Assembly: GCA_038253825.1 (NCBI GenBank)
Contig: JBBSGT010000004.1
Coordinates: forward strand, 1-60,393
Reading direction: 5' to 3'
Length of the DNA: 60,393 nucleotides
Source of the DNA: Candidatus Levyibacteriota bacterium
GTDB lineage: Bacteria; Patescibacteriota; Microgenomatia; Levybacterales; UBA12049
Below, in pieces: positions 3,145-52,441 of this stretch; position 1 is the stretch's first letter; the number at the start of each line of letters is the position of its first letter. The translations under genes and the position numbers were made by a program. Under the pieces are notes generated by a model that was not told where the DNA came from, ran no database searches, and worked only from the letters and a program-made list of their open reading frames with translations.

Positions 3145-4785
3145 ATGAATAATCTCATTAAAAACATTAGATTTTATGTATTGGCATTCAGTGGTATTTT
3201 TTCATTGATTATTTATCTATGGGTAACCCTAACGAACCCTTCTCAGCTCACTCAAATTATTGAGCTGGAAGAAACCTATGGTTTGTTATCAATAGTATTG
3301 CTCTATATTACGCTGCTTGCCGGGCCTTTGTGTTACCGATTTAAATGGCTTCCCTTTAAAAGTCAGTATCTAAAATCTCGGCGCGCCCTAGGGGTTGCTA
3401 CTTTTTATTTTGCGTTTCTCCATACATTACTTTCATTTTTTGGACAGTTAGGCGGATTTTCAGGACTTGGTTTTCTTAATCAAAACTACATCTTTGCAAT
3501 TCTTTTTGGCTTTATTGCTCTTATCATATTCTTTTTTCTGACAATTACATCGCTGGATATTGCCGTTGAAAAAATGTCATTTCCGAAATGGAAACTTTTG
3601 CATCGGTTTATTTATTTAGGAGGGATATTGGTACTCGTGCATATCGTTTTACTAGGATCCCATTATTTAGATCTGTCTGAAAGTGTTCCTTTGATAACAT
3701 TTGTCGGATTAGTTTTTCTTCTAATTTTAGAAGAACCCAGATTGTATAACTATATTCGCAAAAAGATTCCCGTGTCTCCAATACCTGAAATTTTGCGAAG
3801 TTTCATTATTGCCACGTTTTCTATCGGAGTTGTTCTATTTATTTATAGTGAGGTCGTTACACCTTTGGTTTCACCAAACACTCCAGGAATATCTTTCGAT
3901 GTGCATGCAGGCCATCGAACTTTAGCACAACAGGCGTTGGATCAATCACAACAACAATCCCTTTCGAGTAGTGGCTCTGTTAATACTACTACCTATAATC
4001 TTCCCTCAAATGCAAACATCCCAGAATTAAATGGGGATCGTACCAAACGCTATACAGTGAGCATGAGTACTGATCCGGTTGCTCCCCAACCCAATCAGCC
4101 CGTAACAATCCATATGCAAGTCTACGATGCGGGTTCGGGTAATAAAGTCACATACTTCAAATTATTGTATACACAGTTCATGCACTTAATTGTTGTAAAC
4201 AGTGACCTTACGTATTTCAATCATACCCAACTGAGACAAGACGGACAAGAATTTGTTATGACAACACAATTTCCCAAAGACGATCTTTATCATCTTTATA
4301 TCCAGTTTCAACCACTTGGTGGGATAGAACAGCAAATGGCTTTTACTCTTCCTGTTGGTAGTGTTCCAATCAGTCCGACTTTGTCAAAAGCGACTCCAGA
4401 TAGTAATAAAATAAAAACAGTCGGCCCGTACAATATTGCAATTGATAACCATGGTTCATTACAAGCTTCTGCTCTGTCTCAAGGTTCTCAGAAAATCTCT
4501 ATTACTATTAGGGATGCCAAAACAAATAAGCCGCTAAAGAACCTAAAACCGTATCTTGGCGCATTTGGTCATCTGACACTCATTAACGAAAAGACGTTTG
4601 ATTTTGTGCATGTTCATCCATATGATATAAATCCGCCACTTCCCGATGCAAATGGTGGGCCAACTGTTGATTTTCTTCCGAGAGGAATTTATGGACCTTT
4701 TAAACCAGGTATTTATCGAGGGTTCGTCGAATTAAATCCTGATAATGCATTATTTACTTCGGACTTCACGGTAAAAATGCGATGA
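3145..4785 (+). CDS. membrane protein: ferric-reductase-like (MsrQ/YedZ-type, heme-b) TM domain fused to two extracytoplasmic beta-sandwich-like domains with His motifs
   Basis: 546 aa. N-terminal 6-TM region with conserved His residues (FAFLHTLL, LLHRFIY, LVHIVL). C-terminal tandem domains carry MHLIVVNSDLTYFNH and FGHLTLINEKTFDFVHVHPY. Confidence 0.55.
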   Translation: MNNLIKNIRFYVLAFSGIFSLIIYLWVTLTNPSQLTQIIELEETYGLLSIVLLYITLLAGPLCYRFKWLPFKSQYLKSRRALGVATFYFAFLHTLLSFFGQLGGFSGLGFLNQNYIFAILFGFIALIIFFFLTITSLDIAVEKMSFPKWKLLHRFIYLGGILVLVHIVLLGSHYLDLSESVPLITFVGLVFLLILEEPRLYNYIRKKIPVSPIPEILRSFIIATFSIGVVLFIYSEVVTPLVSPNTPGISFDVHAGHRTLAQQALDQSQQQSLSSSGSVNTTTYNLPSNANIPELNGDRTKRYTVSMSTDPVAPQPNQPVTIHMQVYDAGSGNKVTYFKLLYTQFMHLIVVNSDLTYFNHTQLRQDGQEFVMTTQFPKDDLYHLYIQFQPLGGIEQQMAFTLPVGSVPISPTLSKATPDSNKIKTVGPYNIAIDNHGSLQASALSQGSQKISITIRDAKTNKPLKNLKPYLGAFGHLTLINEKTFDFVHVHPYDINPPLPDANGGPTVDFLPRGIYGPFKPGIYRGFVELNPDNALFTSDFTVKMR

Positions 4786-4798
4786 GGTATAATAGGAT

Positions 4799-5389
4799 AT
4801 GAAAAAAATTATTGTCGTTACTTTTTTTCTTTTTAGTTCACTATTTATTCCTCAGCAAGTTTTTGCTCATTTCCTCGCAACTGATAAAAGTATAGGAGCC
4901 GTTCTCTATGTCGATCCCAATGACGAACCAATAGCCGGTTCCCAAGCTTCTTTTTTCTTTGAATTTAAAGATAAAGAAAATAAATTTGATCCGCAAAATT
5001 GTGATTGTACTTTTTTAATTAAAGAAAATGGTAATAAAATTTATTCTCAACCATTATTCCAAAATAGTGATAAAGCTAGTTTGAGTAACGCTCATGTCGT
5101 CTATACATTTCCACAAAAAGATATTTATCAAGTACAAGTAATTGGTAAACCGAATCCACCTAATGAATTTGCGCCTTTTACGTTATCATGGGACTTTCGC
5201 ATTGATCAAGAAGCAAACCCCAAATCAAATCAGTCAAATTCGAATTTTAATACAAATTTTTTGCGATACTTACTTATTTTTGGTGTTGCTACAGTTATTA
5301 TAGTTGCTTTTTTTATCAAAAATTTAATGAGCAATAAAAAAGAAGAACAGCTAAAAAAAGGAGGTGGAGCAAAAGATGAAAAAAAATAA
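4799..5389 (+). CDS. secreted, C-terminally membrane-anchored protein with CxC motif (paralogue of 51441-52064)
   Basis: Signal peptide ..QQVFA|HF, FKDKENKFDPQNCDCTFLI, GKPNPPNEFAPFTLSWDF, C-terminal TM helix and a K-rich tail. It lies 13 nt after the upstream gene. Confidence 0.6.
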   Translation: MKKIIVVTFFLFSSLFIPQQVFAHFLATDKSIGAVLYVDPNDEPIAGSQASFFFEFKDKENKFDPQNCDCTFLIKENGNKIYSQPLFQNSDKASLSNAHVVYTFPQKDIYQVQVIGKPNPPNEFAPFTLSWDFRIDQEANPKSNQSNSNFNTNFLRYLLIFGVATVIIVAFFIKNLMSNKKEEQLKKGGGAKDEKK

Positions 5390-5434
5390 TATACCCTGTA
5401 TACCTTATTGTTCGCTTTTTATATAATAGATTCT

Positions 5435-6349
5435 ATGGATATTTTTTCAGCCATTCTTATTGTCCTCGGATTAATACTTTTCGAAACAGTCAGTAGTCTC
5501 GATAATGCAGTTATTAATGCGCAAGTTCTTTCTACTATGTCACAACGTGGAAGACGTTGGTTTATGGTGTACGGTTTTTTTGTAGCTGTTTTTTTGATAC
5601 GAGGTTTATTGCCATTTCTAATTGTTTGGGCTGCTAATCCTTCACTGGGACCGCTCGGAGCCTTTACGGCGGCATTTAGTTCGGATCCACGTATTCACGA
5701 ATCAATAGAATCATCAACGCCTATTTTATTACTTGGAGGTGGTACATTTCTTATTTTACTTTTTTTTCACTGGCTTTTTCTTGAACCCAAGGCTTTCGGA
5801 ATAAGAGGTGAACGATTTATTCAGTCAAAAGGCATGTGGTTTTATGCTGTCGCTTCTGTGATTTTGTTAGTACTTTTGTGGTTTTCTTTTCAAATACGTC
5901 CCGCAATGGCAGTTGGTACTTTTGTCGGTGCTCTATCTTTTTTTATTACGAATGGTTTTAAAGAAAATGCTGAAAAAGCAGAAAAAGGTTTGCTTTCAAA
6001 ACATGCCAGGTCAGATATAAATAAAATTATTTATTTGGAGGCGATTGATGCTACATTTTCTATAGATGGTGTGCTTGGTGCATTTGCTTTTACTTTATCA
6101 ATTCCGCTGATCATCCTTGGTAATGGTATAGGTGCATTTATTGTTCGAAGTTTGACTGTTCGCAGTATCGATAGTTTAAAGAAATACAAATTCCTTAAAA
6201 ACGGCGCTATGTACTCAGTCTTTTTCCTTGGTTGTGTTATGCTAACTGATAGTTTTGGTTTCTCAATTCCTGGATGGGTTCCTCCTATTATTACTTTTCT
6301 GGTAATACTTTATTTTTTTTATAAATCAAAATCTGCTGTGAGTAAATAA
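5435..6349 (+). CDS. DUF475/TerC-like integral membrane protein
   Basis: Multi-TM protein with N-terminal ETVSSLDNAVINAQVL motif, characteristic of the DUF475/TerC-type families. The ORF track starts at TTG 5408; ATG 5435 is more likely. Confidence 0.55.
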   Translation: MDIFSAILIVLGLILFETVSSLDNAVINAQVLSTMSQRGRRWFMVYGFFVAVFLIRGLLPFLIVWAANPSLGPLGAFTAAFSSDPRIHESIESSTPILLLGGGTFLILLFFHWLFLEPKAFGIRGERFIQSKGMWFYAVASVILLVLLWFSFQIRPAMAVGTFVGALSFFITNGFKENAEKAEKGLLSKHARSDINKIIYLEAIDATFSIDGVLGAFAFTLSIPLIILGNGIGAFIVRSLTVRSIDSLKKYKFLKNGAMYSVFFLGCVMLTDSFGFSIPGWVPPIITFLVILYFFYKSKSAVSK

Positions 6350-27614: not shown

Positions 27615-28496
27615 ATGAAAAACCGATATAAATTTCTCATACTTTTCCTCATTCTTCTTGATCTTGCCTTGATTGAAAGAATAATGATTGGTACGAGTTT
27701 GGTTCCTATCTTGAATCCACAAGGTATCGTTGCATTGCAGGAACGCAATCTCATTTTTGTAGCAGTATCTTTAATGCTTATTGTCGTTATTCCTGTATTT
27801 GCCCTCGCGTTTTATGTGGGCTGGAAATATCATGCAAACAATACAAAAGCAACCTATATTCCAGATTGGGATCGTAATGATAAACTACAATTTTTCATAT
27901 GGGGTTTCCCTACTTTAATTATTTGTATTCTTGCCGGGATGGTATGGGTCTACGCGCATAAATTAGATCCACATAAAGCACTTGCATCTTCAACAAAACC
28001 GATTACTATCCAAGTTGTTGCGCTTCGGTGGAAGTGGTTATTTATTTATCCTGAGCAAAAGATTGCTACGGTAAATTATGTGGTATTTCCTGAAAAGACA
28101 CCGATTGATTTTGAACTGACTGCGTACGATACTCCGATGAATTCATTTTGGATTCCGCAACTGGGTGGTCAGATCTACGCCATGTCTGGAATGGCAACCC
28201 AAACGCATTTGATGGCAGATGGTATAGGCGAATATCGTGGTTCAAACGCTGAGATCAGCGGCGCAGGGTTTGCAGACATGACGTTTACTGCAAAATCAGT
28301 TTCGCAAAATGATTTTAATTCATGGGTCAGTTCAGTAAAACAGTCGCCCCTCACACTCGATCAAACAGTCGTTGGTAGACTTTCAAAGCCGAGTAAGGAT
28401 ATGCCTCCTACGTCCTACTCGTCGACACAAGACAATCTCTATACTACAATAGTAATAAAATACATGGCTCACCCCACACAAAATATGAAGATGTAA
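27615..28496 (+). CDS. cyoA: cytochrome o (bo3-type) ubiquinol oxidase subunit II
   Basis: Collinear with E. coli CyoA (KPITIQVVALRWKWLFIYPEQKIATVN, MNSFWIPQLGGQIYAMSGM). No CuA Cys/His ligands, as expected for a quinol oxidase. Confidence 0.9.
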   Translation: MKNRYKFLILFLILLDLALIERIMIGTSLVPILNPQGIVALQERNLIFVAVSLMLIVVIPVFALAFYVGWKYHANNTKATYIPDWDRNDKLQFFIWGFPTLIICILAGMVWVYAHKLDPHKALASSTKPITIQVVALRWKWLFIYPEQKIATVNYVVFPEKTPIDFELTAYDTPMNSFWIPQLGGQIYAMSGMATQTHLMADGIGEYRGSNAEISGAGFADMTFTAKSVSQNDFNSWVSSVKQSPLTLDQTVVGRLSKPSKDMPPTSYSSTQDNLYTTIVIKYMAHPTQNMKM

Positions 28497-28497
28497 T

Positions 28498-30495
28498 ATG
28501 CAGCAATTTATTTTCGGAAAACTTACATTAAATGACTTACCACATGAGTGGTTTACTTTGGGTGGAACGGGTGCATTTATTTCATTGGCAATATTATTTG
28601 TCGCGTTCTTTACGTATTTCAAACGCTGGAAATGGCTTTGGAATGAATGGCTGACAACAACAGATCCCAAAAAAATAGGGATTATGTATATTATTGTCGC
28701 ATTTCTTATGTTCCTTCGTGGTGGACTTGATGCCTTGATGATTTGGACACAGCAAGTGCTTGGTGCTGGTAATTCACCAGGGTTTTTAGGAGCCCAACAT
28801 GGTTATCTGAGTGCAGAACATTTTCAGCAAATTTTCACCGCCCACGGGGATATCATGGTTTTCTTTGTGACCATGGGTTTTCTTTTCGGACTTATCAATC
28901 TTATCGTGCCACTACAAATTGGCGCGCGGGATCTTGCCTTTCCATTCTTAAATTCATTAGGTTTTTGGCTTTACTTGGCAGGAGTCGTCATGATCAATAT
29001 GTTCTTTGTTCTTGGGGGCGAATTTGCTGCAACAGGTTGGCTTTCTGTTGCGCCGCTTTCTGAGCTCCAGTTTAATTCTGGAGTAGGAGTGGATTATTGG
29101 ATATGGAGTTTGCAAGTCTCAGGAATTGGAACATTAATTGGTGGTATCAATTTTGTAGTGACTATTTTAAAACTCCGTGCACCTGGGATGACACTCATGC
29201 GGATGCCGATGTTCACATGGGCTTCTTTAATGGGTATGCTACTCGTCGTTACAATCTTTCCCATACTGGCTATGACGATCGTACTTCTCAATCTCGATCG
29301 TTTTATGGGAATGCATTTCTTTACTTTGGATAACGGTGGGAGTCCTATGATGTATTGGAATCTAATTTGGATGTGGGGACATCCTGAAGTGTATGTTCTG
29401 ATAATTCCCGTGTTTGGTATTTATTCAGAGATAGTTTCTACTTTTGCGCAAAAAAGAATCTTTGGATATACATCTTTAGTAGCTGCGGTGGGGGCTATTA
29501 CGCTTCTCTCATTTTCTGTTTGGCTTCATCATTTTTTTACAATGGGTGCCGGTTCAGACGTCAATGCGACTTTTGGTATTGCGACTGAATTTATTGCTAT
29601 ACCAACCGGTGTACAAATTATTAATTGGCTCTTTACGTTGTTCAGAGGGAGAATTATTTTCAAAACGCCTATCTATTGGTTCTATGGGTTCGTAAGTTTG
29701 TTTACTTTTGGTGGTATGGCTGGCGTTTTGATGGGACTTCCTCCAATTGATTTCCAGGTCCATAATAGTTTGTTTTTAGTTGCGCACTTTCATACTATGA
29801 TTGTGAGCGGTGCCCTTTTTGGTATTTTTGCCGGCTTTACGTATTGGTTTCCCAAAATTGCCGGCTTTACATTAAATGAACGTATCGGCAAATATGCTTT
29901 CTGGACGTGGTTCATTGGCTTTTTGGTATCATTTACTCCTCTTTTTATTTTAGGATTTATGGGAGCTACTCGTCGTATCGAGCATTATGATGCTTCCACA
30001 GGCTGGCAGTATCTTTTTATGGTATCGCTTGTCGGGGTGTTGATTATTGCCTGCGCAGTTGGTCTTCAGATACTACAATTGATTGTGAGTATATGGCAAC
30101 GAAAACAAAATCTTGATCTTAGCGGAGATCCATGGAATGGCAGAAGCCTTGAATGGGCGACATCCTCACCACCCCCTTTCTATAATTTTGCGGTGATTCC
30201 ACAGGTCACTAGTCGGGATGCTTTTTGGGAAATGAAAAAAAGTGGGAAAAATAAAGCGCCTATAAAATATGAAGATCTTGAATTACCCAAGAATACACCA
30301 ATGGGAATTTACCTTTCGGCGTTTATTTTTCTTTTTGGACTTGCCATGGTATGGCATGCGACATTATTTATAATCATTGGTTTAATCGGCACGATAAGTT
30401 GTATCATTATTCGTACGTTCGATGACAATAGTGAATATACATTGACAGCAGCAGAAGTGGAAAAGATAGAGAAAAGAATGAGAAAGAGAGAATGA
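28498..30495 (+). CDS. cyoB: cytochrome o ubiquinol oxidase subunit I (heme-copper oxidase)
   Basis: 665 aa. WMWGHPEVYVLIIP, WLHHFFTMG, HNSLFLVAHFH motifs. Starts 1 nt after cyoA. Confidence 0.95.
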   Translation: MQQFIFGKLTLNDLPHEWFTLGGTGAFISLAILFVAFFTYFKRWKWLWNEWLTTTDPKKIGIMYIIVAFLMFLRGGLDALMIWTQQVLGAGNSPGFLGAQHGYLSAEHFQQIFTAHGDIMVFFVTMGFLFGLINLIVPLQIGARDLAFPFLNSLGFWLYLAGVVMINMFFVLGGEFAATGWLSVAPLSELQFNSGVGVDYWIWSLQVSGIGTLIGGINFVVTILKLRAPGMTLMRMPMFTWASLMGMLLVVTIFPILAMTIVLLNLDRFMGMHFFTLDNGGSPMMYWNLIWMWGHPEVYVLIIPVFGIYSEIVSTFAQKRIFGYTSLVAAVGAITLLSFSVWLHHFFTMGAGSDVNATFGIATEFIAIPTGVQIINWLFTLFRGRIIFKTPIYWFYGFVSLFTFGGMAGVLMGLPPIDFQVHNSLFLVAHFHTMIVSGALFGIFAGFTYWFPKIAGFTLNERIGKYAFWTWFIGFLVSFTPLFILGFMGATRRIEHYDASTGWQYLFMVSLVGVLIIACAVGLQILQLIVSIWQRKQNLDLSGDPWNGRSLEWATSSPPPFYNFAVIPQVTSRDAFWEMKKSGKNKAPIKYEDLELPKNTPMGIYLSAFIFLFGLAMVWHATLFIIIGLIGTISCIIIRTFDDNSEYTLTAAEVEKIEKRMRKRE

Positions 30496-30525
30496 AGAAT
30501 TAATGTTTATATTAAATCTATAATT

Positions 30526-31134
30526 ATGTCATTAGCAAAAACTATACCAAATCAAGACGTGGCTCATCACCAGGCGTTAGCAACAGACAAAACTGTTTTC
30601 GGTTTTTGGGTCTATCTTATGACCGATTTATTGATGTTTGGTGTTCTGTTTGCCACTTACTCTGTTCTCCATGGAAATATCTTTAATGGTCCTTCAGGAC
30701 ATGAAATTTTCAGTTTACCGTTCGCGCTTTTAGAAACAATGATTTTGCTTACCAGTAGTTTTACATGTGGACTTGCTATGCTTGCGGTGCGCAAAAACGC
30801 CAAGAACCAAGTGCTACTCTGGCTAGGGATAACGTTCTTGTTAGGTTTAGCATTTTTAGGGCTAGAATTTAGTGAATTCAGTAAACTTATTTCAGAAGGT
30901 AATAGTTGGCAACGCAGCGCCTTTCTCTCATCTTTCTTTACGCTTGTCGGTACACACGGTTTGCATATTACATCAGGATTATTGTGGATGTTAATTTGTA
31001 TGATAAAGGTTAAGTCTCAAGGACTTAATGTAAATATTGCCAGAAAACTGACGCTTTTCAGTTTGTTTTGGCATTTCTTGGATATCGTATGGATTTTTAT
31101 TTTTACTATTGTCTATTTAATGGGCGCGATATAG
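30526..31134 (+). CDS. cyoC: cytochrome o ubiquinol oxidase subunit III
   Basis: FGFWVYLMTDLLMFGVLFATY and WHFLDIVWIFIFTIVY match CyoC. Confidence 0.9.
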   Translation: MSLAKTIPNQDVAHHQALATDKTVFGFWVYLMTDLLMFGVLFATYSVLHGNIFNGPSGHEIFSLPFALLETMILLTSSFTCGLAMLAVRKNAKNQVLLWLGITFLLGLAFLGLEFSEFSKLISEGNSWQRSAFLSSFFTLVGTHGLHITSGLLWMLICMIKVKSQGLNVNIARKLTLFSLFWHFLDIVWIFIFTIVYLMGAI

Positions 31135-31149
31135 GAGTGAAAAGTTTTT

Positions 31150-31524
31150 ATGAATAAGAAAGAAGAAATACAAATTAAGCAAATCGAACACCCTGGTACA
31201 TTAAAATCATATGTGACAGGATTTGTTTTATCAATTGTATTAACCATTATCCCCTATCTTATAGTAATCAACCATATTGTCAGTGGTGCCTTTATTGTGG
31301 CAGTCGTTATTTGTTTTGCATTTGCACAACTTGCAGTTCAGTTGCTGTTTTTCCTACATATGCGAGAGGAAGCAAAACCAAGACTTAATTTACTTATTTT
31401 TATTTCGTTTGCAAGTATTATACTTATTGTCGTTGTTGCATCAATTTGGATTATGCAACATTTGAATTACAATATGAATCTTATTCAGCTAAATAATGAG
31501 ATGAAATATGGTGAAGGCTTCTAA
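31150..31524 (+). CDS. cyoD: cytochrome o ubiquinol oxidase subunit IV
   Basis: 124 aa. LKSYVTGFVLSIVLTIIPY and QLLFFLHM match CyoD. Confidence 0.85.
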   Translation: MNKKEEIQIKQIEHPGTLKSYVTGFVLSIVLTIIPYLIVINHIVSGAFIVAVVICFAFAQLAVQLLFFLHMREEAKPRLNLLIFISFASIILIVVVASIWIMQHLNYNMNLIQLNNEMKYGEGF

Positions 31525-31542
31525 TATTATTTTTACTTAAAA

Positions 31543-32397
31543 TTGATTAAAGCATATTATACCCTTACAAAACCCGGAATTATTTACGGAAATGCCTTAA
31601 CTGCTGCCGGCGGTTTTTTTCTTGCGGCTCATGGGATTATCAATATTAGTTTGTTCTTTGCAATGCTTTTTGGATTGTCGTGCATTATCGCTTCTGCTTG
31701 TGTTTTTAATAATATTCTGGACCGAAATATTGATGCAAAAATGAAACGTACCAAGTTTCGTCCTCTTGTCCAGAAAGTAATTACTGTCAAACAAGCATTT
31801 ATTTTTGCAAGTTTCTTAAGTATTATTGGTACATTGATTTTAAGTTTGTACACAAATTCGTTGACGCTCTCTTTTGCTTTGTTGGGTTTATTTTTTTATG
31901 TTGTTGTCTATGGCATCGCAAAGCGATATACCGTTCATAGTACGATTATCGGATGTATCTCTGGCGCCTTACCCCCTGTTGTGGGTTATTGCAGTGTGAC
32001 GAATCAATTTGACCTAGTAGCATTTTTCCTTTTTACGATTCTTATTTTTTGGCAAATGCCTCATTTCTATGCAATTGGGATGTTCCGTTTGGAAGAATAT
32101 AAAACAGCAGGTTTGCCAATTTGGCCTTCTGTTAAAGGGGCAGAAAATACAAAGCAAAAAATTATTGTATATGTTGTGGGATTTTTAACAACTATTAGTT
32201 TGCTTACTGCATTTCATTTCATTGGCTATATTTATCTGTTTGTCATGGTTACGATTAGTTTATTATGGTTATTAAAAGGTATACGTGGTTTTGGTTTACA
32301 ACAGGATATTGCATGGGCAAAGTCTATGTTTCTTTTTTCGCTTGTCGTTATTACTGTTTTTTCAGTGATGATTTCTGTTGGGCCTGTTCTTCCTTAG
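31543..32397 (+). CDS. cyoE: protoheme IX farnesyltransferase (heme O synthase)
   Basis: TKPGIIYGNALTAAGGFFLA, NNILDRNIDAKMKRT, UbiA-type polyprenyltransferase. TTG start. Confidence 0.9.
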   Translation: MIKAYYTLTKPGIIYGNALTAAGGFFLAAHGIINISLFFAMLFGLSCIIASACVFNNILDRNIDAKMKRTKFRPLVQKVITVKQAFIFASFLSIIGTLILSLYTNSLTLSFALLGLFFYVVVYGIAKRYTVHSTIIGCISGALPPVVGYCSVTNQFDLVAFFLFTILIFWQMPHFYAIGMFRLEEYKTAGLPIWPSVKGAENTKQKIIVYVVGFLTTISLLTAFHFIGYIYLFVMVTISLLWLLKGIRGFGLQQDIAWAKSMFLFSLVVITVFSVMISVGPVLP

Positions 32398-45726: not shown

Positions 45727-46068
45727 TTATTTTTTGTGTCCGTATTGAATGACTTTGATTTTTTCTTCTGTAATCAATGCGCTGCCGCTTACCTTCCAGG
45801 TGTCATATGCTGCCTTAAATTCCTCGATCTTTTCTTGTGTATCAACAATTTCAATAATAATCGGTTCATCTGTTGAGAGTTCCAATATATTTGCTGTATG
45901 AACCTTACTTGCTTTTCCAAAGCCTGCAATACCACGAAGTACTGTTACTCCCGCATAATGATTCCTGGCTAAATATTGTACGATGTATTCATAGAGAGTT
46001 TGCCCATCACACTTGTCTTTTTCTCCAATGAACATGCGTAATAATACTGCTTGTGTTTCTTCTTTCAT
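45727..46068 (-). CDS. DUF190 domain protein (crcB-associated)
   Basis: 113 aa. LRMFIGEKDK..GQTLYEYIV..GVTVLRGIAGFG, typical of DUF190. Lies 4 nt after crcB. Confidence 0.8.
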   Translation of the reverse strand: MKEETQAVLLRMFIGEKDKCDGQTLYEYIVQYLARNHYAGVTVLRGIAGFGKASKVHTANILELSTDEPIIIEIVDTQEKIEEFKAAYDTWKVSGSALITEEKIKVIQYGHKK

Positions 46069-46072
46069 ATAG

Positions 46073-46453
46073 TTATTTAATTATTATTATTATAGCAAGT
46101 TGTTTGCTCAAGTAAATGGCAAAAAGACATAAGGAAACGTTAAGTACTAGATTTAGTCCAAAGTGCATATAATCTGATAATTCAGCTAATCGAAATGATT
46201 CAAATGCAAAGGTAGACATCGTTGTATAGGCACCGATAAACCCAACTGTAATCATGTTACGTACATCAGGATCAATGTTTCTTCCATAGAGCACTGCATA
46301 GCTAATAAATCCAAGGATAAAACTCCCAGTTACATTCACAAAGAGTGTCCCAAGGGGAAATGAAGGTAATAAACTACCTACATATCGCGAGATTAAAAAT
46401 CTGCTGACTGAGCCGAAGAATCCACCAATACCGATTAATAATATTTGATTCAT
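46073..46453 (-). CDS. crcB: fluoride channel CrcB/FluC
   Basis: 126 aa, 4 TM. GGFFGSVSRF, PLGTLFVNVTGSF, GFIGAYTTMSTF. Confidence 0.9.
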   Translation of the reverse strand: MNQILLIGIGGFFGSVSRFLISRYVGSLLPSFPLGTLFVNVTGSFILGFISYAVLYGRNIDPDVRNMITVGFIGAYTTMSTFAFESFRLAELSDYMHFGLNLVLNVSLCLFAIYLSKQLAIIIIIK

Positions 46454-46488
46454 AATTATGAAAATTATATGAACTTCACCTTTTTTTC

Positions 46489-47235
46489 TTATTTATCTAA
46501 TTCTTCCAGTTCTTTAAGTAATCTTTTTCGTTTTTCCTGTATTTTTGTATCATTATGGTATCTATGGTATGAAGGTGAGACTTTTACCGTACTTGTTCTT
46601 ATTTCTATAAAAAACAATCCCAAAAACCCCATTCCAAAACCAAATAAAAGTCCACCAATGACATCTGTAGTCCAATGCTCTCCCAAACTGATACGACTAA
46701 CACAAACGAAAATAACAAAAAGAGCTGTTAGAGAGAGTAATACGAATTTAACAGGGAGAGAAAACTTTTTTGAAAGGCAAATTGTATAGGCAAATAGTAT
46801 AGCAACAAAAATTGTTCTAAAACTATGCCCGGAGGGATAGGAAGAGCCTGCCTGCACATAAGTTTTATCAAAACTCATCGGAGCAACATCCAGATGTTTA
46901 TAAAACATAAATGGCGGCGGCGGATGGTGAATAAATACTTTTCCGAAAAGCTCTACCGCATGCGATGCAAAGAACAATAAAAGTATAAAAATACCACTTA
47001 TTTTTTTTCTAAAAACAAGCAGCACAATGAGGAGCACTGCCATACTTTCGATACTCGCTAGAAAACTAAACACAGGGTAGACTTTATCAAATCGTAGTCC
47101 TGTATGATCCTGCAATTTGACGGTTGTATTAAAATCAAATGTATCTAATCCATGTTTTCTGACGATAACTGAAAAAAGAAAGAAGAGTGCTAAAGAGATA
47201 ATGCTGAGTGAGATAAATATTGTTTTCTTATTCAT
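46489..47235 (-). CDS. PAP2 superfamily phosphatase (membrane lipid-phosphate/undecaprenyl-PP phosphatase-like)
   Basis: SYPSGHSFRT and SRISLGEHWTTDVIGG acid-phosphatase motifs. Multi-TM. Confidence 0.85.
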   Translation of the reverse strand: MNKKTIFISLSIISLALFFLFSVIVRKHGLDTFDFNTTVKLQDHTGLRFDKVYPVFSFLASIESMAVLLIVLLVFRKKISGIFILLLFFASHAVELFGKVFIHHPPPPFMFYKHLDVAPMSFDKTYVQAGSSYPSGHSFRTIFVAILFAYTICLSKKFSLPVKFVLLSLTALFVIFVCVSRISLGEHWTTDVIGGLLFGFGMGFLGLFFIEIRTSTVKVSPSYHRYHNDTKIQEKRKRLLKELEELDK

Positions 47236-47242
47236 AAAGAAA

Positions 47243-48445
47243 TTATACTGCTAACGCTTTTGGATGATAAAATCTGGTAAATACGACGAGTAACAACGCT
47301 GCTACCGCTGCAATTATAGCACCAAAGAAGAAAGGAGCGGCAGGATTTACTGTATCCCACAAAAAACCGGCAATGATACTCGCAGGAAGTGTTACAAGAC
47401 CGATAACAGCATTGTAAACACCATATGCTCTCCCTCTAAATTCAGTTGGGATGATATCAGCAACAAATGCTTTGGCTACTCCTTCGGTTGTTGCATAATA
47501 AATGCCATAAAAGGCAAAAAGTAACCAAATCTGATACCCCTTATTCGCAATTGCAAAGCCAAAATAGGCAAAAGCATAAGCTATCCATCCAATGAGAATA
47601 ACTTTTTCGCGACCAATCTTGTCTGATAAACTTCCAAGCGGAATGGACGCAGAAGCATAAATAAAATTAAAGAGAGCATATACTAAGGGGATAGCAAGGA
47701 TACTGACACCAACATTTTGTGCTCGAAGTATAAGGAAAGTATCAGATGAATTCCCAATTGAGAACAACACGACAATTCCCAAAAATATATAAAACTTTTT
47801 TGGTAGTGCAAACGAAAGAGCTTTTGCAGGATCTTTTTTGGCGTAAGGCACTTCTTTTACGAAAAAGACAATAATTGCGAGAGTAAACAGCAGTGGAATC
47901 GCGGCAATAAAGAAAATATAATGATACTTCAAATTGTTATCTTTGAGGAGAAGTAAAAGAGCAAAAAGAATGAGTGGTCCTACAACTGAGCCTAGTGTAT
48001 CAAGTGCTCTAACTATTCCAAAACCTTTTCCTCGACTTTCTTTTTGCGTAGATTCTGCAATGAGTGCGTCCTTTGGTGAATCTTTAATTCCTTTTCCTAT
48101 ACCATCAAGAAAGCGTAGAAAAAGTACAAACCCTGCGGAAGTTGTTAGTGCTAAGAGTGGTCTTCCAACAAGGGAAAGAAAATATCCTGCAAAGACAATT
48201 GCTTTATTCGTCCGAAACCTATCAGAAAGAAAGCCTGAAACAATTTTGAAAATACTTGCGCTGCTGGTAACAAGTCCTTCCGTTAATCCAATAAATGATT
48301 TATCTAAATGGAGAACATTGGCTAAGTAAATCGGAAGAATTGGAATAATAATATCCTGACTAATGCCCCCAAAAAAGCTTAGTAAGCCAATGAAAAAGGT
48401 ATTGTTAAAATATCTGCTTCTTTTCGTTCTATTCAGTTTTGTCAT
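47243..48445 (-). CDS. MFS transporter (12 TMS), substrate unknown
   Basis: 400 aa. GFLSDRFRTNK (motif A-like), 12 hydrophobic segments. First gene after the fluoride riboswitch. Confidence 0.85.
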   Translation of the reverse strand: MTKLNRTKRSRYFNNTFFIGLLSFFGGISQDIIIPILPIYLANVLHLDKSFIGLTEGLVTSSASIFKIVSGFLSDRFRTNKAIVFAGYFLSLVGRPLLALTTSAGFVLFLRFLDGIGKGIKDSPKDALIAESTQKESRGKGFGIVRALDTLGSVVGPLILFALLLLLKDNNLKYHYIFFIAAIPLLFTLAIIVFFVKEVPYAKKDPAKALSFALPKKFYIFLGIVVLFSIGNSSDTFLILRAQNVGVSILAIPLVYALFNFIYASASIPLGSLSDKIGREKVILIGWIAYAFAYFGFAIANKGYQIWLLFAFYGIYYATTEGVAKAFVADIIPTEFRGRAYGVYNAVIGLVTLPASIIAGFLWDTVNPAAPFFFGAIIAAVAALLLVVFTRFYHPKALAV

Positions 48446-48535
48446 AAAAAAAGACCTCTACTTTTACTTAGGAAGTAGAAGTCATTAGTCTTAGCAAAAC
48501 TAAGACGATTAAAAGCGGACATCATCACTTGGTTC
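48446..48535 (-). promoter_or_regulatory. fluoride riboswitch (crcB RNA motif) with terminator expression platform
   Basis: Minus strand: AAGUG-AUGAUGUC-CGCUU (P1), UUAAUC, GUCUUAG-UUUUG-CUAAGAC (P3), UAAUGACUUCUAC tail. The tail is the 5' arm of the 11-bp terminator GACUUCUACUU/AAGUAGAGGUC plus U7 (48446-48483), which abuts the ATG and contains the GAGG SD. Confidence 0.8.
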
Positions 48536-48536
48536 T

Positions 48537-48565
48537 ATTCTCTACTTATTTACATACCTTGTCAA
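48537..48565 (-). promoter_or_regulatory. promoter of the riboswitch-controlled operon (TTGACA-17 nt-GAGAAT)
   Basis: -35 at 48560-48565 and -10 at 48537-48542, minus-strand reading. The predicted transcription start falls at the first aptamer helix. Confidence 0.5.
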
Positions 48566-48684: not shown

Positions 48685-48758
48685 TGGCTACCGAGCCTGG
48701 ATTCGAACCAGAATAAACAGCTCCAAAGGCTGTTGTCCTACCGTTAGACGACTCGGTA
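48685..48758 (-). tRNA. tRNA-Gln (anticodon UUG), CCA encoded
   Basis: Acceptor TACCGAG/CTCGGTA (U1-A72), anticodon loop CTTTGGA, T-arm TCTGG-TTCGAAT-CCAGG, G73, CCA. Confidence 0.9.
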
Positions 48759-49020: not shown

Positions 49021-49049
49021 TTGCAACGAGATATATTATGGGTTATAAT
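49021..49049 (+). promoter_or_regulatory. promoter candidate for the tyrosinase gene (TTGCAA-17 nt-TATAAT)
   Basis: TTGCAA at 49021-49026 and TATAAT at 49044-49049, 25 nt upstream of ATG 49075. Confidence 0.45.
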
Positions 49050-49074
49050 CCATTCAATTGGCAGAAATAAAACT

Positions 49075-51420
49075 ATGAAGGTGGTACGTATAATTTTAGC
49101 GTTAATTATTGTTGTCTTTTCTGTGATTGCACAGTTACAATTTGCCAACGCGCAAACAGCAACTCGTCTCGGAGGAATGAATTTAGATGGTTACTGCGGT
49201 AGTCTTAATGCCGGGGGAGCTTCTCTCAATGGTACTTCTTGGCAATGTGATAGTGGTGCTGCAATCAATATGAGTGCTGCTTGCCAATGGCAATATGCTA
49301 CATCAAGTGCAACTGCAGTCCAAGAAACAGCAAATAATCCTTATTCATGGGCATGTTATTCAGGTAGTCCCGCACAACCAACATCAACTCCGACACCTAC
49401 GACAGGCTCCGGACCTACGGCAACTCCGACGCCAACTCGGGCTGTGACACCAACTCCTACGTCAACTCAAACAGGAAGCACAATCGCTATTTTTAGTGAT
49501 GCTTTGGCAACCAATTGGACTGATGCTTCATATAATGCAACCAATACAATAGTTTCCTCTCCTGTTGCCAGCGGATCAGCAGCTATTGCAACTCAAGTTA
49601 ATGCAAATGGTGGCTTTGATGTACAAGCTCTTACGGCAATCCCAACCGGAACAAATATGACAGTCCATTTTATGTTGCGCACTACTCAAGCAAACCAACG
49701 TTATGAAATTTATGCTGACTCAACCTATGGTCAACCATTGCGAGCTCCTGTCTCTTTAGCAAATTATGGTGGTCAACCAATTGCTACTGGATGGACAACC
49801 TATGATATACCTCTTTCGGATTTGGGCGCAAATAATGTAAATCTTAAAGATATTGTTTTCCATGACGCAACAGGAACAAATCAACCCATTCTTTATATTG
49901 ATGAATTGCAGTTGAGAACGCCTAATGCAACTACTACCCCAACAAATGGAGCTACAGCAACACCGACACCAACTGTTCGGCCCACCGCTACGCCAACGCC
50001 GACAACTGTACCTACAGCAACCCCAACTCCTATAGCTTCAGGAAGCAGTGTGATTGTCTATGGTGATGCCTTGGCAAGTGGTTGGAGTGACGCTTCATAC
50101 AATGCTACAGATACGAGTGTTACGACACCTGTATTTAGCGGCACAAATGCAATTTCATCACTAATTAATGCAAACGGTGGTTTTGATTTGCAATCTGTAA
50201 GTGGTCAAATTACCACAAGTACGACTTCTCTTCATTTTGCACTACGTGCTACACAAGCAAATCAGCAATATGAAGTTTATGCAGATACACAGTATGGTCA
50301 ACCATTGCGCGCACCGGTCTCACTTGCAAATTATGGTGGGCAACCGACTGCTACTGGATGGACATCCTATGACATACCACTTTCAGCATTAGGTGCAACA
50401 GGTGTTATGCTTAAAGATATTGCTATTCACGACTCAACAGGAACCAATCAGCCTGTTCTTTATGTTGACGATGTAGAACTCCGTTCAGCCAGTGGCTCAA
50501 CCACACCGACACCAATTCCTACAACAGGCGCTACCCCAACAGTAACCCCGACACCCACCACGAGTACATCAGGTGTTATCGTCCGCCAAAGTATTTATGC
50601 TTTAACTCCAACTCAGTTAACTCGTCTTGCGAATGCACTTAATACTATGCGTTCAAATGGTACTTATCAAGACTTTATGAATCGCCACCAAGCAGCAATG
50701 TCTACACTAACTCCTACCAATGAAACAGGAACCCAGAGAAATGTAGCTCATCGTGGCCCGGCTTTCCTCCCATGGCATCGAGCATTCTTATGGGAATTTG
50801 AACAAGACTTGCGTAAGATAGATCCAACAGTGACATTGCCATATTGGCCTTTTGAACAAGACGCAAGTTCAGCAAGTGCAGGTCAATTACCAAAAGTCTT
50901 TACTGCAGCATATTTCGGTGGCGACGGTAATCGTTCAAGCAATAATTTGGTGACCGATGGTCCATTTACTTCATGGAATATCACACGAGAAATCGGTCGT
51001 GATCCTCAAGGAATGCCAACCTTATCAACACAAGCTGATATCAATGCCATGTTGCAGCTCACAACCTATGACGGCGCACCTTATGATGAACAATCAAGTG
51101 GATTCCGGAATGCTATCGAAGGCTGGGTTGGAAATGAAGGAGAATGGAGTGGCCACAATCGCGTTCACGCGTACATCGGGGGAGATATGGCTGGAAACAC
51201 CAACCAAAATATCGTGAATGATCCTATCTTCTTCCTCCTTCATGCAGACGTTGATCGTCTTTGGTGGCAATGGCAGCAACAGCATGGTCAGAACACATAC
51301 GCTCCGACAAGTGGCGGTCCGATAGGACACAACCTCAATGACGTAATGCAAGATCTTCCTGAAGGATTCACTCCAGCACAAACCATGAGCACCCAATCGA
51401 TGGGATATACCTATCAATAA
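49075..51420 (+). CDS. secreted multidomain tyrosinase (type-3 copper polyphenol oxidase) with Cys-rich N-domain and two CBM-like modules
   Basis: Signal peptide ..FANA|QT. CuA VAHRGPAFLPWHRAFLWEFEQDL. CuB HNRVHAYIGGDM..NDPIFFLLHADVDRLWWQWQ, nearly collinear with Streptomyces MelC2. Two ~150-aa repeats separated by PT linkers. Confidence 0.85.
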   Translation: MKVVRIILALIIVVFSVIAQLQFANAQTATRLGGMNLDGYCGSLNAGGASLNGTSWQCDSGAAINMSAACQWQYATSSATAVQETANNPYSWACYSGSPAQPTSTPTPTTGSGPTATPTPTRAVTPTPTSTQTGSTIAIFSDALATNWTDASYNATNTIVSSPVASGSAAIATQVNANGGFDVQALTAIPTGTNMTVHFMLRTTQANQRYEIYADSTYGQPLRAPVSLANYGGQPIATGWTTYDIPLSDLGANNVNLKDIVFHDATGTNQPILYIDELQLRTPNATTTPTNGATATPTPTVRPTATPTPTTVPTATPTPIASGSSVIVYGDALASGWSDASYNATDTSVTTPVFSGTNAISSLINANGGFDLQSVSGQITTSTTSLHFALRATQANQQYEVYADTQYGQPLRAPVSLANYGGQPTATGWTSYDIPLSALGATGVMLKDIAIHDSTGTNQPVLYVDDVELRSASGSTTPTPIPTTGATPTVTPTPTTSTSGVIVRQSIYALTPTQLTRLANALNTMRSNGTYQDFMNRHQAAMSTLTPTNETGTQRNVAHRGPAFLPWHRAFLWEFEQDLRKIDPTVTLPYWPFEQDASSASAGQLPKVFTAAYFGGDGNRSSNNLVTDGPFTSWNITREIGRDPQGMPTLSTQADINAMLQLTTYDGAPYDEQSSGFRNAIEGWVGNEGEWSGHNRVHAYIGGDMAGNTNQNIVNDPIFFLLHADVDRLWWQWQQQHGQNTYAPTSGGPIGHNLNDVMQDLPEGFTPAQTMSTQSMGYTYQ

Positions 51421-51440: not shown

Positions 51441-52064
51441 ATGAGGTATTCAGTCTACTTCTCAATTTTACTTGCAGCATTTAGCTTTTTCCTTTTCCCC
51501 TCAGTAACCCATGCGGATTTCGATGCGTCCGATAATTCTATTAGTGCGATTATTCACATAACAGCGGTTGATGGAGGTTCCATGGGATCGATGAATATGG
51601 CACCAATAAATAACCCGACAGCAAATTCGCCACTCCAAATGGAACTCTCATTTAAAGATACCCAAAATAAATTTCAACTTAAAAATTGTACCTGTATGCT
51701 AACTATTACTCAGCCGAAAAGGCTCCCCTACACGCAACAAGTAACAGTTAAAAATTTTAGGGCCCCCACTAACAATACAGAAATAGTTTATAACTTCCCT
51801 TCTCCTGCTACATACACAATGACATTGACAGGTAAGCCAAACGATAGTAGCTTTGCACCATTTACATTAAAATGGCAAATTCCAGTTGGCGGTAAATTTG
51901 TCTCCACACCAAAAGCCAAACATCCCCGTCAATCAAACATAGGTTGGTATATAGGCATTGTAATTGCTTTGATTTTAGGCTTGGCTTATTGGCAGTTTTA
52001 TTATAAAGCACACAAAAAACAGAGAACAACTCCTCCTTCCAATCCGACACCTCCGACAGTCTAA
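51441..52064 (+). CDS. secreted, C-terminally membrane-anchored CxC-motif protein (paralogue of 4799-5389)
   Basis: Signal peptide, FKDTQNKFQLKNCTCMLTI, GKPNDSSFAPFTLKWQI, TM helix and basic tail. Lies 20 nt after the tyrosinase stop. Confidence 0.6.
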   Translation: MRYSVYFSILLAAFSFFLFPSVTHADFDASDNSISAIIHITAVDGGSMGSMNMAPINNPTANSPLQMELSFKDTQNKFQLKNCTCMLTITQPKRLPYTQQVTVKNFRAPTNNTEIVYNFPSPATYTMTLTGKPNDSSFAPFTLKWQIPVGGKFVSTPKAKHPRQSNIGWYIGIVIALILGLAYWQFYYKAHKKQRTTPPSNPTPPTV

Positions 52065-52105: not shown

Positions 52106-52441
52106 ATGACAACGAACTATTCGCGAGGATCAATGCTTATTCCTGTCATTCTTATTGTGGTGATTTGTCTCGGAATGCTTGGATTTATTTTTTTCAAGTC
52201 ATCAGTGCATAAAATGCCAGTAAATAATGTCCCAGCCTTCACACCAACGCAAGCCGCGACATCAGTCCAGTCCCAGCCCACCAAAGACTTCGCCCCAAAT
52301 TTACCCATGAGCCAAAAATCAACTATTACTATCCGACTCTCAGACAGTTCTACGATGAAATACATCGTACCCAAAACCCAAGTAGACACTTATATCAAAA
52401 ATCTTCCCAAGGGGTACACTGTTCTTTCCACTACAAAATAA
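52106..52441 (+). CDS. hypothetical membrane-anchored protein
   Basis: 111 aa with one N-terminal TM helix. No motif. Confidence 0.4.
   Translation: MTTNYSRGSMLIPVILIVVICLGMLGFIFFKSSVHKMPVNNVPAFTPTQAATSVQSQPTKDFAPNLPMSQKSTITIRLSDSSTMKYIVPKTQVDTYIKNLPKGYTVLSTTK

Follow-up and report, generated by a model that had tools for sequence, protein, structure and literature searches.

The usual picture of candidate-phyla-radiation (CPR) bacteria is one of symbionts that live by fermentation and have a minimal metabolism, and Patescibacteria are often episymbionts. An earlier note on a contig of a Candidatus Levyibacteriota bacterium had recognised in it a gene for a secreted, multidomain tyrosinase of the Streptomyces type, and had considered such an enzyme unexpected in an organism with so reduced-looking a gene content. 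The stretch of DNA analysed here, 60,393 nucleotides in all and referred to below as the window, is too short a basis for a judgement on gene content. It also has a bo3-type oxidase operon, which makes a copper enzyme dependent on O2 less surprising here than had been suggested. No paper connecting a tyrosinase with Patescibacteria or the CPR was found in the literature. Two questions are raised by this locus: whether the protein is indeed a tyrosinase aimed at some polymer surface and, since it carries a Sec signal, how its binuclear copper site is filled outside the cell.

The tyrosinase gene occupies positions 49075..51420 of the forward strand in the list of open reading frames and encodes 781 aa followed by a stop codon, the product being identical to P0001. 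A longer reading of the same frame, 49021..51420 (+), begins at a TTG, and the 781-aa product begins at the ATG at 49075. This ATG is likely to be the translation start, because every homologue begins at the corresponding position (MK[VA][VI]R...) and a promoter-like element, TTGCAA-17-TATAAT, lies inside the longer reading (49021..49049, +, 26 nt 5' of the ATG). This element was found in a consensus scan, with 10/12 matches, and is a putative promoter by consensus match alone. Given this start, the gene limits proposed in the earlier note, 49075-51420, are right. The homologues align over their full length with 56-84% identity, and the one that is 84% identical is syntenic and belongs to another assembly named 'Candidatus Levyibacteriota bacterium', in support of a Patescibacteria lineage as the host.

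The last 280 aa of the protein (aa 501-781; 50575..51417, +) are, as far as sequence can tell, a type-3 copper tyrosinase core that is complete and has no C-terminal lid, an assignment based on Pfam, on PDB alignments and on invariance within the clade. The PF00264 profile, whose use had been proposed as a check, matches aa 530-736 with an E value of 5.9e-37 and 128.5 bits, far over the 22.6-bit gathering cutoff, and is covered from position 3 to 214 of its 214 positions; tyrosinases of the PDB match aa 503-780 with E values of about 1e-50. Both copper-site motifs quoted in the earlier note are present verbatim in the protein, and the ligands are H538, H559 and H568 for CuA and H694, H698 and H723 for CuB. 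Loss of a ligand was looked for in the alignment and none was found, all six histidines (6/6) pairing with a histidine of the B. megaterium-type enzyme 8hpi, and they are invariant in nine members of the clade. Moreover, E682 and N695, at the water-activating positions, match the Glu and Asn of the B. megaterium enzyme in the alignment and do not vary within the clade. An Asn at the position following HisB1 is listed among the activity-controller residues and is linked to monophenolase activity (PMC10526336). The combination of this core with the N-terminal architecture described below is far beyond chance.

These residues also bear on the possibility that the catalytic domain instead oxidises a small-molecule metabolite, either as a catechol oxidase or, like GriF, NspF and BagH, as an o-aminophenol oxidase/hydroxylase. 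A partial match to the NCBIfam BagH_FevF model and the presence of the o-aminophenol oxidase 9t62 among the PDB matches speak for this assignment. However, membership of the BagH/FevF family was rejected, since the protein reaches 93 bits against the 630 required and its best stretch is the CuA half only; true tyrosinases match much better (E 1e-50 versus 3e-28), the protein has both the conserved Glu and the Asn that follows HisB1, and biosynthetic genes were not found nearby. We therefore regard this assignment as very improbable and continue to treat the domain as a tyrosinase.

The attribution to the Streptomyces MelC2 type, with which the copper sites had been described as almost collinear, proved imprecise. 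The NCBIfam MelC2 equivalog model, NF047834, gives 192.4 bits against a 450-bit cutoff, so that membership was rejected; the alignment with the Streptomyces tyrosinase ends at aa 760, MelC2 being without the 20 C-terminal residues of the window protein, whereas that with the B. megaterium type continues to the last residue. In a neighbour-joining (NJ) tree, the window tyrosinase sits in a clade of its own, apart from both the Streptomyces and the B. megaterium types. What is shared with the MelC1/MelC2 pair (PDB 1WX2) is the type-3 copper core itself (E 1e-46) and the concept of an operon of two genes, one for the enzyme and one for a protein that would load its copper. The window has no MelC1 homologue: no MelC1 Pfam match was found among the neighbouring genes, there is no open reading frame between the tRNA-Gln and the tyrosinase gene, and the enzyme carries its own signal peptide. 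MelC1 is encoded upstream of its enzyme, whereas the candidate helper gene of the window lies downstream.

The alignment is more complete with the Bacillus megaterium tyrosinase TyrBm (PDB 3NM8 and 4P6R; related 8HPI), which shares the core end to end with 41% identity, aa 503-780 aligning with residues 6-285 of the 289 of the B. megaterium-type enzyme. Both have the six histidines, the conserved Glu and the Asn that follows HisB1, and both are without lid domain and caddie gene. The B. megaterium enzyme takes up copper without a helper, and is listed as 'no caddie' (PMC10526336). The solved chains of this type, of 287-303 residues, have no counterpart of the first 500 aa of the window protein, which adds a signal peptide, a 4-Cys module, two modules resembling carbohydrate-binding modules (CBMs) and a linked partner gene, and which belongs to a separate clade. 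The tyrosinase of Verrucomicrobium spinosum is also exported and needs no caddie (PMC10526336); unlike the window protein it carries a Tat signal as well as an inhibitory lid at its C-terminus, and it is far more distant (8bbq, E 1e-5).

Most members of the clade of the window tyrosinase are found in small Patescibacteria-like genomes, and some are labelled 'Gammaproteobacteria' or 'Limnocylindrales'. These labels, together with a GC content of 0.43 at 50-52 kb against 0.37 overall and with the syntenic locus L087, which has no tyrosinase, could suggest that the gene is foreign, through recent horizontal transfer, mis-assembly or mis-binning, and that its apparent presence in a reduced genome is artefactual. 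We find this hardly credible. The gene is embedded in a contig of 60 kb, an independent Levyibacteriota assembly shows the same order of genes, and the clade records labelled 'Gammaproteobacteria' have just 1.3-1.6 Mb. Recent horizontal transfer was rejected as the source of the rise in GC, since GC3 (0.23-0.35) is no higher than that of the genes around it; the rise comes from Pro, Thr, Ala and Gly codons. We thus take the gene as belonging to the genome in which it was found.

At its N-terminus the protein has a Sec-type signal peptide of its own, as had been proposed (aa 1-26; 49152 being its last position, 49075..49152, +). Read directly from the sequence, it consists of the n-region MKVVR, a hydrophobic core and an AXA site, with cleavage after ANA, that is, between MKVVRIILALIIVVFSVIAQLQFANA and QT. 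It contains no twin arginine, and no RR motif was found in any signal peptide of the tyrosinase clade. In Streptomyces, MelC2 leaves the cell by Tat hitch-hiking on its caddie, whereas the window enzyme has its own Sec signal.

The signal peptide is followed by a 4-Cys module of about 74 aa (49153..49365, +), a small alpha/beta domain that contains every cysteine of the protein (Cys41, 58, 70 and 94, all within aa 27-100). The four residues are invariant across 18 copies of the module, which is modelled by AF2 with a pLDDT of 82-94 and an element order b-a-b-b-a-b-b. This module has no Pfam match, and a profile of the 18 copies searched against PDB sequences found nothing at E values up to 10; it also appears one to three times per protein in SGNH esterases and in PQQ-dehydrogenase-like proteins. 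Three Pro/Thr-rich linkers, recognised by their composition, separate the modules: linker 1 at about aa 98-133 (49366..49473, +; model pLDDT <50, GC 0.57), linker 2 at about aa 283-322 (49921..50040, +) and linker 3 at about aa 472-500 (50488..50574, +). Between them lie two jelly-roll modules, module 1 at aa 134-282 (49474..49920, +) and module 2, identified by its likeness to the first, at aa 323-471 (50041..50487, +). Each has 149 aa, and the two are 63% identical in amino acids (94/149) and 69% in nucleotides.

The N-terminal half is thus built as the earlier note had described it, with a 4-Cys domain, three linkers and two CBM-like beta-sandwiches. The jelly-roll module is modelled with a pLDDT of 94-98, and its best Foldseek match is the CBM8 of Dictyostelium discoideum, 7t7y (E 1e-8, TM 0.82, rmsd 2.9 A), on which the predicted fold superposes over 155 columns. 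The likeness is one of fold: identity to CBM8 is only 20% and the modules of the window have no Pfam match. CBM11, 30, 4, 29 and 22 follow CBM8 among the matches, and with these beta-jelly-roll CBMs the modules share the Pro/Thr linkers and the pairing with carbohydrate-active catalytic domains. In other proteins the module is found with SGNH (PF13472), CE4 (PF01522), GH5 (PF00150) and GH18 domains, and also alongside PF14099, PF12891 and PQQ-GDH (PF07995).

Another reading of the same modules takes them, together with the 4-Cys module, as adhesins for a protein or lipid on the surface of a host or partner cell, the oxidase then acting in episymbiosis by quinone toxicity, cross-linking or a melanin-like coat. 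The frequent episymbiotic habit of Patescibacteria would agree with this, as would the Foldseek matches to the cleaved-adhesin domains of gingipain Kgp (E 3e-5 to 7e-5), the existence of S8-protease-module-tyrosinase fusions (P0012, P0013) and a weak match of the tyrosinase protein to the NCBIfam model 'choice-of-anchor J'. Nevertheless, the best 25 structural matches are all CBMs, and the modules mostly stand beside the carbohydrate-active SGNH, CE4, GH5 and GH18 domains, so we judge adhesion of this kind unlikely and prefer binding to polysaccharide. To our knowledge, no natural fusion of a CBM with a tyrosinase is known, and a search of the literature found none described from bacteria.

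Only 20 nt past the stop codon of the tyrosinase begins a second gene (51441..52064, +), with no terminator found between the two. Its product, referred to here as the partner, has 207 aa and comprises a signal peptide, an eight-stranded beta-sandwich with a CxC motif (C83, C85), a Met-rich loop of sequence SMGSMNM and, at its C-terminus, a transmembrane helix. A gene of the same family comes immediately after the tyrosinase gene in seven sequence-verified loci (the window, L003, L001, L005, L006, L088 and L092), at a distance of 3-20 nt, the other flanking genes being different. The enzyme core, the modules and the signal peptide of the earlier description stand; the implication that the enzyme lacks any helper is not supported, a recurrent gene with copper-binding-like features being found immediately behind it. 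At the same time, no partner was found beside six tyrosinases of the clade (L004, L009, L010, L011, the P0013 locus and L093, the last close to the end of its contig), and in the syntenic locus L087 the partner is present alone; it is therefore not obligatory. A 224-aa open reading frame upstream in L004 was considered as an alternative partner and rejected as unrelated. The tyrosinase of L009, a second one and without a partner, has an N-terminal Met-rich stretch of its own, CEGQMNMDGMSMPQPSC.

The partner looks like an extracytoplasmic copper-binding protein. The best Foldseek matches of its AF2 model are the copper-binding proteins CrdA, PmoD and FetP/P19/FtrA/HftA, at E values of about 2e-4 and TM 0.57-0.72, with generic Ig-like folds (an OST subunit and RhoGDI) nearly equal. 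Specifically, 9ll2 and 9ll4, of CopC/CrdA-like fold, are matched with E 2-4e-4 and a target-normalised TM of 0.69-0.72, the query model having a pLDDT of only 74, and 6cpd (PmoD) with E 3e-4 and TM 0.57. The CxC is invariant in 157/157 members of the partner family, and could be structural or form a disulfide; the Met-rich loop is present in 3/10 close members, the copy of the window included, and may correspond to that of CopC/CrdA. PmoD consists of a signal peptide, a beta domain in which two Cys are conserved, and a TM helix at the C-terminus (PMC6189053), a topology that the partner, with its two invariant Cys, reproduces. The motif of PmoD/AmoD is nevertheless Cx7MxHxnC, as opposed to CxC, and no sequence homology was detected between them.

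The same holds more generally, no link at the level of sequence being found to CopC, PmoD or YcnI. A Pfam/NCBIfam scan of 47 members of the family gave no family assignment, with only PKD domains in a few longer members, and the family profile searched against PDB sequences returned noise alone (E >1). As for PF07987 (YcnI/DUF1775), there is no Pfam match, and hhalign against a DUF1775 protein aligned signal peptides only. In the wider family, the mature N-terminal residue is His in 87% of members and a further His shows 94% conservation, an arrangement reminiscent of a histidine brace (PMC10952591); an N-terminal His is also a possible point of likeness to CopC and YcnI. The window partner lacks the N-terminal His, and its closest relatives have no conserved second His.

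For the genes themselves, there is a precedent in Marinomonas mediterranea, where the membrane protein gene ppoB2 follows the tyrosinase gene ppoB1. PpoB2, the product of this second operon gene, is required specifically for copper transfer to the tyrosinase and is a COG5486-type transmembrane metal-binding protein (PMC2855505). In contrast, the partner of the window is a beta-sandwich with a single anchor and a CxC, and has no Pfam family match. By its linkage to the tyrosinase and its copper-protein features, the partner probably supplies the enzyme with copper outside the cell.

A rather unlikely alternative is that the tyrosinase has been read correctly and the partner has no part in copper delivery, being a membrane dock for the enzyme at the cell surface, a regulator or inhibitor, or just a frequent neighbour, while environmental copper is taken up by the enzyme unaided. 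The loci in which only one of the two genes is found fit this well, as do the missing His residues of the window copy, the weakness of the fold matches and the 'no caddie' entry of bmTyr cited above. Against it, the adjacency is repeated in seven loci with unrelated flanks, and the invariant CxC, the Met-rich loop, the matches to copper-protein folds and the position of paralogues beside Ferric_reduct and YcnI genes all point to copper.

The reading that we favour, and consider reasonably probable, is that of an apo-tyrosinase exported by Sec, tethered to polysaccharide and loaded with copper extracellularly via the downstream CxC protein. The enzyme, an extracellular monophenol/o-diphenol oxidase, would cross the membrane unfolded through Sec, and because of this its copper would have to be inserted outside the cell. 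Once the signal peptide has been cleaved, the enzyme may be kept on a polysaccharide matrix by its 4-Cys module and its pair of CBM8-like modules, which flexible Pro/Thr linkers connect. Candidates for this matrix are the wall material of plants, algae or fungi and the envelope of a host or of the cell itself. The membrane-anchored CxC beta-sandwich protein (51441-52064), presumably co-transcribed, would capture copper at the surface and deliver it to the enzyme. Since the core has neither lid nor caddie, constitutive activity is to be expected once two coppers are held, and O2 would then be used to convert the phenols or catechols within reach into o-quinones. The roles suggested in the earlier note, on host wall phenolics, in melanin or in Tyr cross-links, are speculative. 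Sec export, carbohydrate binding, copper hand-over and the nature of the substrate are what we infer from the domains, conserved ligands, folds and gene linkage observed.

More tentatively, it is possible that the two genes form a previously undescribed extracellular copper-loading system, in which the chaperone would give a general extracytoplasmic copper-handling family its first member with a functional context, and the enzyme would be the first natural CBM-targeted bacterial tyrosinase. If so, phenolics would be oxidised inside a polysaccharide matrix by a naturally CBM-targeted enzyme. That a copper oxidase which is conserved, secreted, dependent on O2 and directed to a polymer surface occurs in CPR bacteria suggests that they modify their surroundings or hosts chemically, with quinone production, cross-linking, melanin-like coats or aid in lignocellulose breakdown as possible effects. 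A naturally CBM-fused, lid-less tyrosinase could also serve in immobilised biocatalysis.

As to how copper reaches its site in the exported enzyme, the linked CxC protein offers a testable candidate answer, and also an entry to more than 1000 unannotated clusters adjoining ferric-reductase-like and YcnI genes, the family comprising at least 1395 clusters at 50% identity. A paralogue of the partner in the window adjoins the gene of a Ferric_reduct membrane protein, and that of L090 adjoins both Ferric_reduct and YcnI/DUF1775. A scan of metagenomes with the partner alignment recovered just two loci, both of them of the His-type paralogue.

The tyrosinase gene was read from the in-frame ATG at 49075 (+), giving a protein of 781 aa, and not from the beginning of the long reading frame in the six-frame ORF list (49021..51420, +), since the equivalent Met is the start in every homologue compared with it, a database entry (P0001) is identical to the 781-aa protein, and a promoter-like site (TTGCAA-17-TATAAT, 49021-49049) falls within the longer reading. 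Thus, the coordinates assigned in the earlier note (49075-51420) were right. The protein consists of a signal peptide lacking a twin arginine (aa 1-26, MKVVRIILALIIVVFSVIAQLQFANA, followed by QT), a four-Cys module (aa 27-97) whose Cys 41, 58, 70, and 94 are the only ones in the protein, two repeated modules that are mutually 63% identical (aa 134-282 and 323-471), three Pro/Thr linkers (aa 98-133, 283-322, and 472-500), and the catalytic core (aa 501-781). The tyrosinase start is preceded, at a distance of 316 nt, by a tRNA-Gln(TTG) gene on the opposite strand (48685-48758, -).

Judged by its sequence, the core is a complete type-3 copper tyrosinase, as had been claimed from the DNA alone. 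Residues 530-736 match nearly the entire Pfam profile PF00264 (E 5.9e-37), and the best single-domain matches among solved structures are of the B. megaterium type (8hpi, 4hd7, 3nm8, and 4p6r; aa 503-780, E about 1e-50 to 1e-52), followed by the Streptomyces castaneoglobisporus enzyme (1wx2, E 1e-46), whose alignment ends at aa 760. In the 8hpi alignment (41% identity over 267 columns), His lies opposite all six of H538, H559, H568, H694, H698, and H723. These six residues are invariant across nine aligned clade members, and so are E682 and N695, the latter being the residue after HisB1, a position described as an activity controller (PMC10526336). Because the core runs to the end of the protein, there is no C-terminal lid, and a thioether bridge is impossible as the core contains no Cys.

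The further description of the enzyme as Streptomyces-type is not borne out, and it is not a MelC2. The protein scores 192 bits against the NCBIfam MelC2 equivalog, whose cutoff is 450 (BagH/FevF: 93 bits, cutoff 630), and in a neighbour-joining tree it forms its own clade with a Levyibacteriota homologue, small-genome sequences, and metagenomic homologues. This clade stands apart from the Bacillus-containing group and also from a group with one Streptomyces, Protofrankia, Nitrospiraceae, Nitrosovibrio, and two Saccharimonadales sequences. The closest named homologue, 'tyrosinase family protein [Candidatus Levyibacteriota bacterium]', is 84% identical and has the same architecture; its contig and the window share the downstream order partner, 111-aa ORF, TruB, patatin, and DEAD helicase, with two extra genes inserted in the former. 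Levyibacteriota belong to the Microgenomates group, within Patescibacteria. The gene looks native to this genome, since its GC3 (0.23-0.35) equals that of the neighbouring genes, and the rise in GC to 0.43-0.57 is due only to Pro/Thr/Ala/Gly codons.

In a scan of GTDB species-representative genomes, just five loci encoded relatives that are 55-63% identical: two in CAZDOJ01 (1.32-Mb assembly) and one in OZ246394 (1.61 Mb), both labelled 'uncultured Gammaproteobacteria', and one each in a 'Patescibacteria group' MAG and a 'Limnocylindrales' MAG. Beyond these, identity is at most 45% (Acidobacteriota, Streptomyces, Nitrosopumilaceae, and Bacillus). The closest relatives occur in the records of L007 and L008 (CAZDOJ010000001.1 and OZ246394.1) and of L010 (DATLDE010000004.1, 'Candidatus Limnocylindrales'). 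Small genomes, shared modules, and partner genes suggest that these three records come from Patescibacteria-like organisms, or that they are mislabelled or mis-binned. The same 1.32-Mb genome as L007 carries a second, minimal tyrosinase of 344 aa (L009, 3803-4837), in which a short PT linker joins a signal peptide and a Met-/Cys-rich N-terminal stretch (CEGQMNMDGMSMPQPSC) to the core; it has neither modules nor a partner gene.

The N-terminal region was modelled with AlphaFold2 (aa 27-285, 40-row alignment; mean pLDDT 86). The Cys module is predicted as a small b-a-b-b-a-b-b domain (pLDDT 82-94) and is joined by a linker of pLDDT below 50 to the repeated module (pLDDT 94-98). The best Foldseek/PDB match is a Dictyostelium family 8 CBM (7t7y, E 1e-8, TM 0.82, rmsd 2.9 A), followed by CBM11, CBM30, CBM4, CBM29, and CBM22, the best 25 matches all being CBMs. 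An HMM of this jelly-roll module detects it in 34 of 45 retrieved proteins, some of which carry an SGNH esterase, CE4 deacetylase, GH5, PF14099, PF12891, or PQQ-type dehydrogenase domain in their precomputed Pfam annotation. Predicted structure and domain co-occurrence therefore bear out the description of these modules as CBM-like beta-sandwiches. The 74-aa Cys module, with four invariant Cys and one to three copies per protein, is found in tyrosinases, SGNH esterases, and PQQ-dehydrogenase-like proteins; on these distributions, both modules can be considered units that move between the proteins of a common secretome. Within the clade, the architectures are Cys-CBM-CBM-Tyr, Cys-CBM-Tyr, CBMx3-Tyr, Cysx3-CBM-Tyr, Cysx2-Tyr, S8 protease-CBM-Tyr, and the minimal 344-aa form. 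Two metagenomic proteins of about 1200 aa (P0012 and P0013) combine a subtilisin S8 protease, in P0013 with a Fervidolysin-like propeptide, one CBM-like module, and the clade core in a single polypeptide.

The catalytic family is already known, and the nearest homologue is named tyrosinase by NCBI. The module-fused architecture is new, as neither a natural CBM-fused tyrosinase nor a Patescibacteria tyrosinase was found in the literature searched. The distinct clade is also new, as is the linked partner, which belongs to a large, undescribed family that probably binds copper.

This partner, of 207 aa (51441-52064, +), is separated from the tyrosinase stop by 20 nt that contain no terminator-like site, in an operon-like arrangement. 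Homologues follow the tyrosinase at a distance of 3-20 nt in L003 (Levyibacteriota), L001/L007 (CAZDOJ01), L005/L008 (OZ246394), L006, L088, and L092, and the remaining neighbours are not the same across these loci. Partner P0053 and tyrosinase P0003, each on a 5293-nt contig, are probably on the same one, and the equivalent slot after tyrosinase P0005 holds a 190-aa unannotated ORF. The linkage is strong and not obligatory, since no partner follows six clade tyrosinases (L004, L009, L010, L011, L093, whose contig stops shortly after the gene, and the P0013 locus), and L087, syntenic with the window, keeps the partner and lacks the tyrosinase; this last arrangement would fit a tyrosinase that was either gained or lost at this site. 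The partner is followed by an ORF of 111 aa (52106-52441, +), which has a TM segment at its N-terminus and matches no Pfam family. Its position is kept in L003 (3545-3880) and in L087 (5609-5944), in the latter despite the missing tyrosinase. An MntP-type manganese efflux gene constitutes a recurrent metal-related neighbourhood in two clade loci: in L004 (8906-10000) it takes the partner's place directly after the tyrosinase and is followed by a Cu/Zn superoxide dismutase, and in L088 (2057-2305) it follows the partner.

The partner is predicted, with a mean pLDDT of 74, to carry a signal peptide, a beta-sandwich of eight strands (aa 26-150), and, towards its C-terminus, a TM helix (aa 167-195). 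Its C83 and C85 (CxC) are invariant in its relatives, and a low-confidence loop carries a Met-rich insertion in the window copy and two relatives (SMGSMNM, AMANMNM, and PMMRSMKM). The best Foldseek matches of this model are H. pylori CrdA with or without Ag(I) (E 2-4e-4, TM 0.69-0.72), the PmoD soluble domain (E 3e-4), and then the copper-binding FetP/P19/FtrA/HftA/Tp34 group (about 1e-3), with generic Ig-like folds (OST subunit, RhoGDI) just slightly below. CrdA belongs to the CopC family and carries a Met-rich Cu(I) loop (PMC9182242). PmoD is described as a periplasmic cupredoxin domain, in which two Cys are strictly conserved, between a signal peptide and a C-terminal TM helix (PMC6189053), a topology common to the partner. 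A PDB-sequence profile search and hhalign against DUF1775 revealed no homology to CopC, PmoD, or YcnI at the sequence level.

In an exhaustive HMMER search, the partner family comprises at least 1395 representatives at E ≤1e-3 (999 at ≤1e-10), and no Pfam or NCBIfam family matched 47 sampled members. All 157 members retrieved contain the CxC; His is the first mature residue past the A-x-A site in 87% of them, and a second His (LH[IV]DP) is 94% conserved, together with several Asp. Such a pattern recalls the histidine brace found in CopC and YcnI (PMC10952591, PMC8424229). The N-terminal His is missing from the window partner and most tyrosinase-linked members and is present in that of L092. 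A His-type paralogue with a mature N-terminal His and an NCDC motif is also encoded in the window (4799-5389, +), immediately downstream of a 546-aa Ferric_reduct membrane protein (3145-4785, +). The same pair occurs in metagenomic locus L090, followed by a DUF1775/YcnI copper-binding gene. The region 3145-6349 (+) may be a cupric or ferric reductase/copper-handling cluster. A TerC/DUF475 gene (5408-6349, +) comes next after the paralogue.

Taking this into account, it can be proposed that the tyrosinase would be exported unfolded through Sec, as no RR motif occurs in the signal peptide of any clade member, whereas the V. spinosum tyrosinase is Tat-exported (PMC10526336). Its modules would tether it to polysaccharide, the anchored partner would supply the two coppers outside the cell, a role to which we attach roughly even confidence, and the loaded enzyme would then oxidise phenols and catechols to quinones. 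A precedent is Marinomonas PpoB2, the product of a second operon gene whose task is specifically to pass copper to a tyrosinase. PpoB2 itself differs in kind from the partner, being a transmembrane metal-binding protein of the COG5486 type (PMC2855505).

The window also encodes a bo3-type heme-copper quinol oxidase in a four-gene operon (27615-32397, +): COX2 with a COX_ARM motif (27615-28496), COX1 (28498-30495), COX3 (30526-31134), and a UbiA-family heme O synthase (31543-32397). The organism thus meets O2 and must already metallate an extracytoplasmic copper site. To our knowledge, O2-reducing respiratory complexes are uncommon across this radiation. On the opposite strand, a fluoride riboswitch (RF01734, 48469-48538, -, 38.5 bits) precedes an apparent operon, the whole region spanning 45727-48538 (-), that encodes an MFS transporter (47243-48445), a PAP2 phosphatase (46489-47235), a CrcB fluoride channel (46073-46453), and a DUF190 protein (45727-46068), the first two being, as far as we know, less usual in fluoride regulons.
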